Sequence record: NZ_LC586267.2
Source of the DNA: a plasmid
Length of the DNA stretch: 64,000 nucleotides
Strand: one strand, 5' to 3'
Each line of letters starts with the position of its first letter. Positions within the stretch are counted from its first letter, which is position 1. Of this stretch, positions 41,001-59,000 are shown in pieces. Position numbers: made by a program.

Positions 41001-44000
41001 CAGGGCACCGCACAGCGAGCGCTGCCGGCGCAGCTTCTCCGCGGCGCGGTGAATGTAGGTCGCCAGCGCCTCCTGCAGGCCCTGGAGCGTATGCACACGC
41101 TGGCCAAACATCCTGCTTGAGCAGATCGATTGCTTGGCAGGCGTGGACTGTTCAAGGTCCATGCAGGATTCGCCCTGCAGCTCCCTGATGGTCCGTTCAA
41201 GCACAACGCTGTACTTGCGGCCCATCGCTCGCGCTTCGGCCTGCGACAGCTCCCAGGCCGTGCTTATTCCGTCGCGGGCCAGGTTGTCACGCATACGGCG
41301 ACCGATCCCCCACACTTCATCAACCGGCATTCGCCGGAGCAGCCATTCGACCGCCTCGGGCTTGCGCAGGTCGACCACGCCGCCTGTTTTCTCTCGCCAC
41401 ACTTTCGAGGCGTGCTGCGCCGCCTTTGCCAGGGTCTTCGTGTGGCCGATGCCTACTCCTACCGGTAGGGCAGTCCACTGCAGCACTCGGGCTTGAATCG
41501 CCCGGCCTACATCAATGATCGGCTCAGGTAGCCCGTCGAGTCGCACGAACAGTTCGTCAATCGAATACCGTTCCCAGTCCGGTACCAGGGATTCGATGGC
41601 CACACCCACGCGATGACTCAGCTCGCCATACAAGGTGTAATTGCTGCTGAAAACGGCGACGCCGTTCTGCTCCAAGAAGCCGCGCACCTTGAAGTAGGGG
41701 TCCCCCATCTTCAACCCAAGGGCTTTCGCCTCGTTCGTACGAGCCACGATGCAACCGTCCGAGTTGCTCAAAACAACGACTGGGCGTTGCCGCAGCTCCG
41801 GTCTGAAAATGCGCTCACAGCTGCAGTAGAACGAGTTCACATCCACCAGGCCGAAGACGGGCCGAGGTTCACTGTGCATGCTGCGTGAGATCCCAAGTCA
41901 CGACCCCGAACACCTCGATGGTGCCGTACTCGCTGGGCGCGATGCTCTTGTACGCGGGGTTAGCCGATTCAAGAATCCAGCCTGCCGGCGACCTGGCCAG
42001 CCGCTTCACCAGCGGCTGGTTGTCGACGTAGGCCAGCACGATATGCCCAGCGCTGGGCGTGATCGAGCGGTCGACCACCAGGCGGCTCCCGTCGAAGATG
42101 CCGGCATCGCGCATGCTGTCGCCTTCTACCTGGACGATCCAGACATGCGGGGCGCGGATGTTCATCAGTTCATCCAGGGAAAGTGGTGGCTCGTAATAGT
42201 CAGCTGCTGGACTCGGAAAGCCGCCTGCAGCACAGCCGGCAAGCACCTGCAGCAGCTGATCGGAAGCCGCGAGGGGGAGGGGAGTAAGCGCGTTCATAAG
42301 GCACCGTGAATTACTGTATCCATATACAGTAATTCAGGTCGAGCGATGCGGCTAGAGCCGCTGGTATAAAAGGCTCAGCCCGCACCAGCGAAGGTATAGT
42401 CGTTCTCGGTCATGGTGTTCGTGCAAACCTGGTAACGAACTGCCTATGATAGGCGCTGCTACGCACCGAACGCCGAATTCACCGGCGAAGTCGGCGGCGA
42501 ATTTCGGGCACAAAAAAACCGCCTGGACGGGCGGTTCGTTTGTGCGAATCGAATGGACGTTCGTTTCGCGGTTCGCTGATAGCGTCAACAAGGCCGATAG
42601 TAAATACAGTGGTACTGGTTGCGCAATAGCCGAACAGCGACCGGCGCAATGATCAAAATTGATCATCGGAAGATTCACCGAAGCGCCGAGTAAAGCGATC
42701 ATCATTTTGGCTAACGCAATTTTTTTGGGAGTTTGAGCGAATATGCCCAGTTTATCAGCCTGTTGCCGCCACCTAGCGGCATTGCTGGGCATCGTCAAGC
42801 CCCCGTCGTCATTCGGAAAAATAAACTTCACAAACGCGTAAAAAGGCTTTTTTCGGTCATGGTTTTTGCGGTATGAAGTAGAGCACCGGGCGGCTTGCTG
42901 CCTTGGGGGGCCTTTCCACCGCGTCTGGACAACGCGCCGGGAATGGAGAGGGCCGATGAACACTCTGGTTCGCTGATAGCGTCAACACCCTTACGGGGCT
43001 GATCAGTGAAACCGTTGCACTGTCCGGTAAGTGCGGCGGGCCAGGGACCTACCTTTTTGGGGGTTCTATGAAAACGCTAAAGCGTCTCATAGAGGTGGTC
43101 AACGTGGCTGATTTCCTGGCCAAGCTGACAAACGTGTACAGGGCCTGGCTCTGGATTCGTGACCACCTTGATTGATTAGTAACACAGCTGTAGGCCCCGC
43201 TACTCGATGGCGGGGCTTTTTTTTGCCCGCTGGGGGGCCGATGCCGGCGAGCGAGCCGGATCACAGGCAAAAGAAAACCCGCGTTGGCCAGGCCGCAGCG
43301 GGTTCCTCCGTCAGTCAGGTGTTAGCCGTTCCAACTATCGCGGATCCACTCAACCAGGAGCTTTGCAACAACCTGGATGGTGAGATCTTTAAGGAATTTA
43401 TGCATTCCAAGGACCCTCACGGTGCGGGCCTCTGTCTCTATCGCAGCTTTTCCGGAACACAGGCCGACGACGAGATAGCAAGTCAGATGATCTCTGCGAG
43501 ACGCGGGCGGGGCTGATGTTAACCAGGGATCAAATCCGCGCGGATTCCTAGGCCCGCGTCCCCAGCAGTGTTTTGAATCTTTAGAACGGGGCACCCCACC
43601 CGGTACAAACATGCCACAAACGACTGCCCGCGATATTACCGGCTCCGCTGTCGCTGTGCCATCACAAAAGGGGGCTGACCAGGCTTTTTTTGGGCGAAAA
43701 AAAACCGCCGTAGGAGGGCGGTTTTCTTCGGCATCGCGGTTAGGAGCCGCTTTGCCAGGTCTCGCAAAGATCATCTGACTGGGTTAATAGTCGCAAGAGT
43801 TGACAGGTATGGCAACTATTTTTTGAGCAATCCACCAGTAAACGCTGGGGGAAACGAGCCAGCGCGCCACGGGCGTGCCCCCATCCGGGGGGCGGCTGTC
43901 GTGAACCAAGCCCCGGCCAGAAGCACGCCGGGTCTTGGCCCTTCGGGCTTCCATCCTCACGCCTCCGGCCTTCGGCCTGCGCGCTCCGCTTGCCGGTCGT

Positions 44001-56000: not shown

Positions 56001-59000
56001 CTACCAGGATCAAAGCCTGCGCCGCGTGTACGAGCTGGACACCACGAACGATGAATTTCAGATGGTGCCGCTTAACCATGGGAAGTGGCCGCACCACCGC
56101 GCTCATTTGACATGCGGTTGGCGGTGCGACAGTCGACCTACCGGCTTTCTCGCACCGGCAGGGCTTGTGCCTGGTGCCAAAGGCGAGTTCGTGCCGGATG
56201 AAACAGAAGTTGTTTCCGTACGCATTCCGCCTGAATTCGAATGGGAAGGACGCCGGCATCAGATGAAACCTGCGGAACTGCTCGAAAGCTTTATTGGCGA
56301 CCTGGCCGGCATCCAGAACTTTGGCAACAGGCCCCGGGCTGACCGCTTCGGCAGCAACGGCAGCGACGAACGCATGCTGGCTGATCACTGGCTGGAGCGG
56401 GCGCATGGTATGAAAGCTATAGACCCGGACCAGATGAATCAGCAGGCCGAGGAAGCAGAGGAATGGGATGCACAGCAGGACGAATGGTCGGAGCTGCTGG
56501 GCGAATACGCTGATCGAGGCGGTGATCCTCGCCAGTTGCTGGAAGCCGTTGACGGTGTGCTGACCAAGCTGGACGAGTTGGGGCCTGATTTTGTGCTGGA
56601 TCTGCAGGCCGAGGTTGAAGCGACTCAAACCCTGCCCAAACTCACCGAGTTGAATCCCTCGCAGCTGGCGTACCTTGAGAAATGGTTGGCCAGCAACGGC
56701 CCGAACAACCTCCTAAAGTGGCCAGGTTGGCATGACGCCCGAGTTGGCCAGGCTCCGAAAGACGTTTGATTCTCCCTCTTGTGCGTGCCCCTTCGGGGGC
56801 GGCTGTCGTGAACCAAGCCCCGGCCAAAAGCACGCCGGGTCTTGGCCCTTCGAGCTTCCATCCTCACGCCTCCGGCCTTCGGCCTGCGCGCTCCGCTTGC
56901 CGTTTGTATCGTACGGCCGAGGGGGCAACTCCTTACCCGGCCTCACGGCCGGGATGGCCCATCCCACCTGGTAATCAAGATCGAGGGCGAGCCGGCCAGC
57001 AGGCCGGGCGCTGCAGCAGCTCGCGTGGGAGCAAGTGCATGGCTCGGAAATCGCCCTGCAGTTGCCCACCGCCCAGGCGATGATGCGCACCTGGTCCGTG
57101 GACAACTGCACCGTTCGCTCTGGCCCTTGTTGGGGCCCCGCTCACTGGACGATTTTTGTGTGTGGGCTGGGCGACTGCGCAAGAGCGGCCTTCGGCGACC
57201 AAGGGCTGCGCCCTTGGATCCGCAAGCCCAACGCGCCGGCCTCCGAATGGATGCCCTAACGCATATATGCGTTAGGGCTTGAACCGGCGATGTGCTACGC
57301 AGTCATCGAAGTCATCCCGGTAGCGGACCCGGATCTCTGTCATGGCCATGACCAGGGCTTGCACCATCGGCTCCAGAGTCGCCTCCAGCTGATCCAGGAT
57401 CTCAGGACCGACCTTTGATTTGTTGGCGGCTGTGCGCCCTTCCGTTGCGAATTTCTCCAGCGCAATCCGTACGTCCACCCCTCTCCCGAGCAGCTTGGTG
57501 CAGAGGTTTTCTGCCAGGGTCGGAGTTATGTCCAGCCCGTTCAGCCGTTCCACCTGCAGGAATGAAAACACCAGGTCGCGCTTGCAGCGCTTGTGCGCTG
57601 CACCGAGTTCCGCGCCGCAGTGGCTGGCCATCTGGCGCAAGCTGCCTTCCCGATTTTCCAGGTATCGGCGGTAACCATCGAGCCGGTCGGCGTACGCCGA
57701 TTTGGGGGGCATAGAGAAAACGGAAAAAATCGTACGATAAGCCCTGCTGACAGCCTGCAAGCCCTTAGGTTGTGTAGTCGGTGTCCGAATGGGGTATACC
57801 CTAACTTGGCGTCAGACCATCCGGCGCTAAATCGTCAGAATAGAGTTGCCTTCCGAATTGATTGACATACGCCGTCAAGGGTCATAGATTTCTTCCTGAC
57901 ACATTTCCCTCAGGAGGATACCTTGCACGGTCAGCGCATCGGTTACGTCCGCGTCAGCAGCTTCGACCAGAACCCAGAACGGCAGCTCGAACAGATCCAG
58001 GTGGATAAAGTGTTCACCGACAAGGCGTCGGGCAAGGACACACGGCGGCCCGAACTGGAACGGCTGCTCGCCTTCGTGCGCGAAGGCGACACGGTCGTGG
58101 TGCACAGCATGGATCGTCTGGCGCGCAACCTCGACGACCTGCGCCGCCTGGTGCAGGGCCTCACCCAGCGCGGCGTACGCATCGAGTTCCTTAAGGAGCA
58201 TTTGACCTTCACCGGCGAGGACTCGCCGATGGCGAACCTGATGCTGTCGGTAATGGGCGCGTTCGCCGAGTTCGAACGCGCCTTGATCCGCGAGCGGCAG
58301 CGCGAGGGCATCGCGCTCGCCAAGCAGCGCGGGGCCTACCGTGGCAGGAAGAAATCCCTGTCGTCTGAGCGTATTGCCGAACTGCGCCAACGTGTCGAGG
58401 CTGGCGAGCAAAAGACCAAGCTGGCTCGTGAATTCGGAATCAGTCGCGAAACCCTGTATCAATGCTCGAGAACGGATCAGTAAATATGCCACGTCGTTCA
58501 ATCCTGTCCGCCGCCGAGCGCGAAAGCCTGCTGGCGTTGCCGGACACCAAGGATGAGTTGATCCGTCACTACACGTTCAGCGAAACCGACCTCTCCATCA
58601 TCCGGCAGCGGCGCGGCCCGGCCAACCGGCTGGGCTTCGCCGTGCAGCTCTGTTACCTGCGCTTTCCTGGTGTCATCCTGGGCGTCGATGAGCCGCCGTT
58701 TCCGCCCTTGTTGAAACTGGTCGCCGACCAGCTCAAGGTCAGCGTCGAAAGCTGGGACGAATACGGGCAGCGGGAGCAGACCCGGCGCGAGCACCTGGTC
58801 GAACTGCAAACGGTGTTCGGCTTCCAGCCCTTTACCATGGGCCACTACCGGCAGGCCGTCCAGTTGCTGACCGAGATGGCCTTGCAGACCGACAAGGGCA
58901 TCGTGCTGGCCAGCACCTTGATCGAGCACCTGCGGCAGCAGATCGGTCATTCTGCCTGCCCTCAACGCCGTCGAGCGGGCGAGCGCCGAAGCAATCACCC

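Follow-up and report, generated by a model that had tools for sequence, protein, structure and literature searches.

When a conjugative plasmid reaches a new host, the first genes to be expressed are those for anti-defence and establishment, which reside in its leading region. In IncF and IncI plasmids, Frpo/ssi hairpins account for this early expression and priming; to our knowledge, no equivalent has been defined for broad-host-range MOBF plasmids (IncN, IncW, and IncP-9). Here we analyze a GC-rich repeat in a 64,000-nucleotide (nt) stretch of plasmid DNA, record NZ_LC586267.2 (“the window,” to the whole of which all coordinates refer). The repeat comprises two near-identical full copies and one copy of ~125 nt, all on the + strand; repeat search, alignment, and covariance model agree on this, as the preliminary description of the locus had proposed. 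As such it is of a known kind, a conserved upstream (CUP)-like leading-region repeat. IncN, IncW, and IncP-9 plasmids spread carbapenemases and catabolic pathways, and a repeat that is conserved, covarying, and locked in polarity is a concrete candidate for their counterpart of Frpo/ssi.

CUP repeats were described from the leading region of the IncN plasmids pKM101 and R46 (Delver and Belogurov, 1997, J Mol Biol 271:13, as represented in papers that cite it). According to those citing papers, they head the operons of the ArdK-controlled regulon and serve as recombination substrates (PMC3490853; PMC5371602). The repeat studied here is likewise a long, GC-rich direct repeat kept in one orientation at the 5' ends of leading-region operons, and its first part, which we call module A, is homologous to the 5' ~125 nt of the IncN repeats (53 to 73 bits at all three IncN sites, L004 5408, 7916, and 9633, with the covariance model R1 introduced below). 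Both systems have one solitary 5' unit near stbC, a promoter on the 3' side, and recombination between copies. They differ in that the sequence beyond module A is unrelated, and the IncN repeat contains its promoter and ArdK site, whereas here operator, promoter, and leader form a separate five-copy module; just one of these modules follows a copy of the repeat, with its promoter ~95 nt beyond copy 2. Furthermore, the literature, so far as the citing papers represent it, treats CUP as a promoter plus ArdK operator and not as a folded, strand-specific structure. Judged by sequence, we regard the repeat as the IncP-9-type version of the CUP-like leading-region repeats of MOBF plasmids.

In F and IncI1 plasmids, large hairpins of the transferred (T) strand upstream of each early operon act as promoters and possibly as primers (PMC12672017). 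The Frpo/ssi elements of F and ColIb-P9/pESBL resemble our repeat in being dispersed, co-oriented, noncoding, hairpin forming, several hundred nt long, and located upstream of ssb and anti-restriction operons. Our repeat, however, lacks convincing -35/-10 boxes, is far more GC rich, belongs to MOBF rather than IncF/IncI plasmids, and is built of several short mini-hairpins plus a multi-helix junction. The phiX174-type primosome site, the G4-type primase origin, and ssiA/ssiB of RSF1010 share with it stable hairpin clusters on the strand to be copied and C-G-closed GNA/GNNA mini-hairpins (GCGGAGC, CCGAAGG, and GCGAAGC), and phiX174 also shares the 13-mer CAAGCGAAGCGCG; there is no global similarity, and unlike these signals our repeat is multi-copy and resides in a conjugative leading region. 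Repetitive extragenic palindromes, their mosaic elements (REP/BIME), and integron attC sites are also GC-rich intergenic hairpins after stop codons, and attC too acts as a folded single strand, but module A, a multi-helix unit of 125 nt, contains unpaired blocks that do not vary, is confined to the leading regions of plasmids, and keeps one polarity. We saw no recombinase or transposase associated with module A. Neither Rfam nor the searchable literature, in which the original CUP study is represented through citing papers, contains a 125-nt covarying, polarity-locked unit of IncN, IncW, IncP-9, and Burkholderiales plasmids, and the mini-hairpin DNA signature of module A on the transferred strand was likewise not found in the searchable literature.

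Table 1. Coordinates of the repeat copies, their parts, and associated features in the window
Feature	Coordinates	Strand	Basis or remarks
Full copy 1	43869/43873-44322	modelled on +; proposed active strand (-)	repeat search, alignment, covariance model, inverted-repeat search
Copy 1, module A	43869-43996	+	match to R1
Copy 1, module B (long hairpin)	~44023-44206		
Copy 1, module C	~44207-44322		
Full copy 2	52254/52258-52707	modelled on +; proposed active strand (-)	repeat search, alignment, folding, covariance model
Copy 2, module A	52254-52380	+	match to R1
Copy 2, module B (long imperfect hairpin)	52407-52590		
Copy 2, module C	52591-52707		
Copy 3, solitary complete module A	56779-56903	modelled on +; proposed active strand (-)	match to R1, 96.9 bits over full model length
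phiX174-like core of module A tail, CAAGCGGAGCGCG with GCGGAGC mini-hairpin	43980-43992, 52364-52376, 56887-56899	-	
Promoter TTGACT-17-GATACT with TG extension	52802-52830	+	downstream of copy 2; promoter scan; conventional double-strand type
Operator/promoter/leader modules, ~140 nt, five copies	45879-46017, 46814-46951, 49097-49234, 52769-52907, 53938-54075		repeat search
GC-rich noncoding stretch of uncertain membership	56904-57275	.	starts TTGTATCGTACGG, ends with palindromic terminator-like GCCCTAACGCATATATGCGTTAGGGC
CGTACG-containing motif	window 56904-56925; pWW0 (L001) 19338-19357; NAH7 (L006) 16899-16923; L005 29577-29599		
oriT nic-region analogue	14630-14672	-	hairpin CACCTCCC-GCCA-GGGAGGTG, then CGTGTTGTGT/ATTGAG

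The two full copies are 100% identical over 300 nt (43879-44178 versus 52263-52562), and a 113-nt repeat family takes in the third member (56795-56907, 96% identical). In the alignment, all three copies start with GCGTGCCCC (at 43873, 52258, and 56782), with the covariance model beginning four bases earlier. The long copies end in GGCATTAAAGCAG, as had been described, and copy 3 departs from the others after CGCTTGCCG at 56903. These bounds replace the earlier ones, which began copy 1 ~25 nt too early. The third copy is indeed short, but it measures ~125 nt rather than ~105 and is a complete module A instead of an arbitrary truncation. Copy 1 is flanked by minus-strand genes (umuD at 43322-43774 and an open reading frame [ORF] at 44365-44688), whereas copies 2 and 3 begin 13 to 14 nt downstream of + strand stop codons, the distance being 14 nt for copy 2, which ends before a promoter of the sigma-70 type. 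Beyond copy 3 lies a GC-rich stretch of uncertain membership, in which no coding sequence is annotated in a near-identical record; its initial TTGTATCGTACGG motif is common to the solitary copies of pWW0, NAH7, and L005. The palindrome CGTACG sits there within TTGTA(T/A)CGTACGGC(A/C)C, which is conserved directly after the solitary module A of IncP-9-type plasmids.

A 65-kb plasmid of Pseudomonas mosselii, typed as MOBF/MPF_T, shares 99.9% identity with the window between 40 and 60 kb, and over the conserved backbone this part is ~85% identical to the IncP-9 plasmid pWW0. The window can be classed as an IncP-9-like MOBF plasmid, whose leading region holds the copies. They sit among umuDC, a RelE/ParE pair, and genes for DUF4942, cytosine methyltransferases, ssb, DUF932, and a KorA/TrfB-like protein, and the repeat block as a whole is located between the replication/partition genes and stbABC with the origin of transfer (oriT). 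A nic-like motif was placed in the intergenic region between stbA (-) and a trwA-like gene (+) at 14383-14860. It matches the oriT of R388, which reads gcgcaccgaaaggtgcgtattgtctatagccc in its record, the matching part being gcgcaccgaaaggtgcgtattgtct/atagccc with the nick where we take it to be in R388. On the evidence of this match, the T strand is the minus strand of the window, with lower-coordinate DNA (stbABC onwards) entering first. It follows that the order of entry is stbABC and then, around the circle, copy 3, korA-DUF932-ssb, copy 2, the methyltransferases, and copy 1. For leading-region genes in general, the T strand is the template (PMC11541004), and the same holds for the + strand genes of the window.

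The repeat is noncoding, as the preliminary description had judged from the lack of convincing ORFs. Indels of 1, 2, and 4 nt are frequent among eight homologous copies taken from four plasmids, the 91 variable sites are spread over the codon phases as 25/30/36, and the four ORFs overlapping the repeat had no Pfam match; variation does not preserve a reading frame, and on these grounds we rejected a protein-coding gene, known or otherwise. Terminal inverted repeats are absent, as had also been noted, every inverted repeat in the copies being internal and nested. There is no target-site duplication, and the flanks of copies 1 and 2 differ; a miniature inverted-repeat transposable element (MITE) or a derivative of an insertion sequence was rejected, with the copies occupying orthologous positions in ~85% identical plasmids. 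A promoter TTGACA-N17-TATTTT had been reported upstream of copy 1, but the spacer between TTGACA (43800-43805) and TATTTT (43817-43822) is 11 nt, and a promoter scan of 43500-44500 returned no site. Two other candidates were discarded: a relaxase pseudo-nic site, where a hairpin precedes GGCTGTCGTG much as one precedes ATTGTCT in R388, though on the nontransferred strand, and an anti-Shine-Dalgarno CCUCC in ACGCCTCCG, the middle base of which varies (C, T, G, or A).

Several conserved helices, with compensatory changes, make up the structure of module A (~125 nt). RNAalifold on 52 diverse module A sequences (set A2) identified four helices with compensatory changes, and the covariance model R1 was built from these helices. 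Across the 139 R1 matches (131 distinct), 97.1% of cells are standard pairs versus 86.4% after shuffling, and double-changed cells number 254 versus 105; none of 500 shuffles reached the observed values. When partners were slid by 1 to 3 columns, the covariation score fell from 0.260 to 0.038 or less. The closing helix P0 is paired as GGCGTC/GACGCC, GCGTG/CACGC, GCGAG/CTCGC, and others. The other parts are a variable hairpin P1, the invariant GGCTNTCGTG, a helix P2 with an inner hairpin, a hairpin P3 (GCCC-loop-GGGC), the invariant CTTCNATCC, a variable hairpin P4, and the conserved tail CTGCGCGCTNCGCTTGC. Module B is a long imperfect hairpin of ~180 nt, in which 12 of 42 predicted pairs are double changed among 18 homologues, around the invariant core GGGCTTTCGCGGCATAT...TATTCCACG. 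The general suggestion that the repeat is a structured nucleic-acid element is thus borne out, with compensatory changes in both modules. Since the module A words GGGCTNTCGYG, ATCCTCAC, and GCTNCGC recur in the module B core and in module C, the 450-nt repeat looks like two to three diverged structural units.

A sensitive-mode blastn search with the repeat as the query partly matched 1,076 plasmid records, of which 946 are predicted to be conjugative; most matches cover only query positions ~57 to 123. In the IncN plasmid pQNR2078, the match falls between ardA and ccgAI, inside an IncN direct repeat. A degenerate core pattern hit more than 120 metagenome stretches among the matches listed. R1 yielded 139 matches in 100 sources. 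In the window it has exactly three matches, all on the + strand, and it also recognizes the 5' end of every IncN repeat and copies in pWW0, NAH7, pTROUS1, and Burkholderia savannae and Massilia plasmids. The IncW plasmid R388 (L138) has two matches on the minus strand of its record (20031-20155 and 24037-24161, each 35.4 bits, E ~1.6e-5), upstream of orf7 and ardC in intergenic regions with ArdK/StbA-repressed promoters. Module A occurs alone in pWW0 (L001 19211-19337), NAH7 (L006 16777-16903), L005 (29453-29579), IncN plasmids, and pTROUS1; in the insertion-free relative NAH7, no other module A on the leading side lies closer to oriT than the solitary counterpart of copy 3. Because two long copies and one short copy stand at orthologous places in pWW0, NAH7, and a P. 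psychrotolerans plasmid, this arrangement is old. The long copies are almost identical within each plasmid while plasmids differ by 5 to 16%, which indicates gene conversion between copies. The repeat explains long unannotated gaps in plasmids of the pWW0, NAH7, R388, and pKM101 types, and R1 can be used to annotate such elements.

Is the folded molecule RNA or DNA, and which strand folds? On the R1 alignment, G-U wobbles on the + strand (36) are balanced by A-C mismatches (35), which correspond to G-T on the minus strand, each making up ~1.5% of cells; in a functional + strand RNA, G-U should clearly prevail, and there is thus no RNA-type strand bias. (A single-sequence strand test of minimum free energy and G-U content was confounded by base composition and spurious pairs, and counts in ungapped stems fell in the flanks; both are superseded by this comparison and by the loop statistics below.) Of 568 hairpin loops of 3 to 4 nt in 130 distinct sequences, 402 (71%) read T..C on the + strand, that is, G..A on the minus strand, whereas G..A on the + strand occurs once; a C-G pair closes 502 of the loops. 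The P3 loop, which was not constrained by the search pattern, is TNC in 90 and TNNC in 25 of 137 cases, equivalent to C-G-closed GNA and GNNA on the minus strand. Loops of this kind are the mini-hairpin DNA motifs GCGNAGC/GCGNNAGC, which, according to a recent review, occur in the primase origins of phages G4, St-1, and alpha3, in RSF1010 ssiA (CCGAAGG), and in the single-strand promoter of phage N4 (GCGGAGC), and bind SSB poorly (PMC13037366). The minus strand of each long copy contains GCGGAGC, CCGAAGG, CCCGAAGGG, GCGCAGC, and GCGAAGC, and over the full length of the window, the minus strand has 16 C-G-closed GNA hairpins of 4 bp and the plus strand 4, with 9 of the 16 inside copies.

The orientation of the repeat follows oriT and not the neighboring genes. 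In every annotated plasmid locus where the oriT side is visible, the polarity relative to oriT is the same, with the “sense” on the nontransferred strand, and in R388 the matches lie on the strand opposite the one that bears nic. Polarity is kept even where both flanking genes are on the other strand: at copy 1 of the window, NAH7 9566, IncN 9633 (orfD-stbC), and pTROUS1 32957 (ardC-stbC). With DNA parameters, module A folds more stably as the minus than as the plus strand (-33.4 versus -29.0 and -33.0 versus -26.3 kcal/mol). On balance, these observations favor DNA folded on the transferred (minus) strand over RNA.

The alternative that best withstands this evidence is that the repeat is a structured + strand RNA, a 3' untranslated or intercistronic part of leading-region operons that acts as an mRNA stabilizer, processing site, or transcriptional insulator. 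It draws on the strong covariation, an RNA fold z-score of -3.4, the many loops readable as C(UNCG)G, the start of copies 2 and 3 shortly past + strand stop codons, and the mostly shared orientation of copies and neighbors. We nevertheless consider it unlikely. Functional RNAs normally tolerate G-U, of which there is no excess over A-C; the TNNC loops suit GNNA DNA loops and match no RNA motif; several copies have both neighbors on the opposite strand and no detected promoter; and neither a T-tract terminator nor an Rfam family was found. The earlier idea of a noncoding RNA gene is the less probable one, in that the wobble statistics, loop signature, and orientation pattern favor the opposite strand as single-stranded DNA. 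The two tetraloop hairpins reported with it, GGCCCTTCGGGC and GGCCTTCGGCC, are present, although their UUCG loops pair best as 4-bp stems with TTC triloops.

The tail of module A shows a local resemblance to a known priming site. On the minus strand it reads GCAAGCG(G/C/A)AGCGCGCAG, and its motif CAAGCGNAGCGCG occurs exactly three times in the window, always in the copies and always on the minus strand. In the variant with A on the minus strand (T on +), the shared 13-mer is identical to part of ...ttgaccaagcgaagcgcggtagg in the F-G intergenic region of phiX174. This region, which holds the phiX174 site of primosome assembly (n'/PriA), also contains ccaagcgaagcgcgg, and GAAGCGG is found both in its first hairpin and on the minus strand of module C.

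We tentatively propose, with close to even confidence, that the repeat is a single-strand initiation signal on the T strand that would prime complementary-strand synthesis towards the downstream promoters; its most likely kind would be a primosome-assembly or primase entry site. The complement of an incoming T strand is made discontinuously, towards the 5' end of that strand. The active form of the repeat would be its reverse complement, entering the recipient as single-stranded DNA, where the C-G-closed GNA/GNNA mini-hairpins may resist coating by SSB and mark the initiation signal. A primer laid at the repeat, whether through a PriA primosome, DnaG alone, a plasmid primase, or RNA polymerase, could then be extended towards oriT through the adjacent conventional promoter and operon. 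From copy 2 it would pass the promoter at 52802-52830 into a recX-like gene and ssb, and in the NAH7 backbone a primer from the solitary copy would run through ardC and stbCBA to the 5' end. Early genes would thus become double stranded, and expressible, soon after entry, and homologous exchange might keep the copies identical within a plasmid while shuffling operons between them. In the current model for F, the incoming strand is primed repeatedly during entry (bioRxiv 10.64898/2026.01.09.698686). In R388, ardC, orf7, ssb, and other operons have strong, ordinary double-strand promoters that are repressed by ArdK/StbA and overshoot after transfer (PMC3937220). Because the corresponding R388 operons use promoters of this ordinary type, they need duplex DNA and prompt second-strand synthesis, and a T-strand priming signal just beyond each promoter would supply that DNA. 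It is also possible, and we put this somewhat more tentatively, that module A and its relatives B and C represent an undescribed, widespread class of strand-specific single-stranded DNA structure, present in IncN, IncW, IncP-9, and Burkholderiales MOBF plasmids, partly matched in more than 1,000 sequenced plasmids, and without an Rfam family, that serves as an entry point for the host priming machinery on the incoming T strand. If so, the structure would govern when establishment and anti-restriction genes are expressed in plasmid families that lack Frpo.

Several observations weigh against a T-strand priming signal. The window's own copies match the phiX174 motif at 12 of 13 positions, R1 does not match phiX174 or G4, and the likeness is limited to the 13-mer and the loop motifs. 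Tail invariance is partly imposed by the search pattern used to collect the sequences. The minus strand shows no evident conserved CTG as a primase start, and AAGCGG as a primosome-site consensus found no confirmation in the literature searched. Single-sequence folding z-scores for the minus strand are weak (-1.1 to -2.0), the copies are co-oriented with most neighboring genes, as an RNA element would be, and a TNC loop followed by G can also be read as a + strand UNCG tetraloop, although the TNNC class cannot. Finally, a repeat copy precedes just one of the window's five promoter modules.

Another hypothesis sees in the repeat a T-strand promoter active as single-stranded DNA, of a new class comparable to Frpo/ssi, in which the module B hairpin would rebuild -35 and -10 boxes, so that RNA polymerase would transcribe the downstream genes, make the primer, or both. 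Position and logic are those of the large stem-loops that pESBL carries in front of each of its six early operons (PMC12672017), module B is a long covarying hairpin (~180 nt), and the alignment shows TTGCAG/TTGACG/TTGACC on the nontemplate arm, followed 16 to 20 nt later by a conserved (G)ATAGG/GGTAGG. Yet the -10-like hexamer lacks its final T in two of three groups, the spacing is irregular, module B has only a weak TTGCAG-16-GATAGG, and the scan detected no promoter-like site in the repeat on either strand. The repeat is also very GC rich, solitary module A copies have no module B, and a normal double-strand promoter already lies downstream, all of which makes this hypothesis quite unlikely in our view.

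We consider it very unlikely that the repeat is selfish or neutral, either MITE-like or kept only as a recombination substrate that shuffles leading-region operons. The near-identity of copies within plasmids, against 5 to 16% difference between them, points to gene conversion, and deletions and inversions in IncN plasmids have been ascribed to recombination between CUP repeats (PMC3490853; PMC5371602). However, compensatory changes and invariant unpaired blocks across plasmids of Gamma- and Betaproteobacteria show selection on structure, terminal inverted repeats and target-site duplications are lacking, positions are orthologous in 85% identical plasmids, and orientation is strict. An ORF-less group II intron or other ribozyme derivative, proposed because two copies begin with GUGYG, has practically no room left: GUGCG does open copies 2 and 3, where GT precedes the repeat to give GTGCGTGCCCC, but copy 1 (GGGCGTGCCCCC) starts with GGGCG and most homologues with GGGCGT, GAGCGT, GTGCGA, or GGACGT, there is no domain V-like hairpin, the structural unit is ~125 nt, and the Rfam covariance search, including the Intron_gpII and group-II-D1D4 models, yielded no intron family over the whole window at gathering thresholds and no family at all, ribozymes included, in the copies at E-values up to 10, on either strand.

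The promoter downstream of copy 2 is part of one of the five operator/promoter/leader modules. In each, the palindrome GGTCAAATTAGATTTGACC overlaps a -35 box, TTGAC; the -10 box is GATACT, and the conserved 5' leader contains the two hairpins GTCGAAGC..GCTTCGAC and CCAGCGG-CGGCAA-CCGCT and ends in GAAGGAG before the start codon. Every module heads a + strand leading-region operon. The modules are probably the target of a KorA/TrfB-like repressor, for which they are candidate sites.

Two variants were observed among relatives of the repeat. In the second copy of NAH7 (L006 12253-12477), 27 nt at the tip of the module B hairpin are duplicated in tandem (CGCTTCGCGCCTGCGGTATTCCACGAC), which shows that the tip unit can be duplicated. 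An IncN-type Klebsiella plasmid (L011 16373-16477) carries the P4-plus-tail part of module A three times in tandem (CCTCCGGGCTTYGCCCTCCGCNCTYCGCTTGG), which suggests that the hairpin plus GCTNCGC may be the elementary building block.

Near oriT, two perfect tandem copies of a 62-bp unit, gcactaaaaacgcccttaacaagagcatcaatttcgacccttaacagggtcaaaatctcaat, occupy 14518-14641 and end exactly at the predicted nick. Each unit contains the inverted repeat GACCCTTAACAGGGTC, and the units are presumably binding sites for an accessory protein. Rfam matched AAC_AAD_leader / attI at 5563-5631 (-) with 79.6 bits, which indicates a putative class 1 integron within the accessory region that separates ardC from copy 3. 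Copies 1 and 2 enclose genes for a 563-amino-acid cytosine methyltransferase (49527-51218) and a DUF4942 protein (46025-46804). Methyltransferase genes adjoin module A in Burkholderia and Massilia plasmids too, an adjacency reminiscent of the single-strand-specific methyltransferases of leading regions (PMC7736820).

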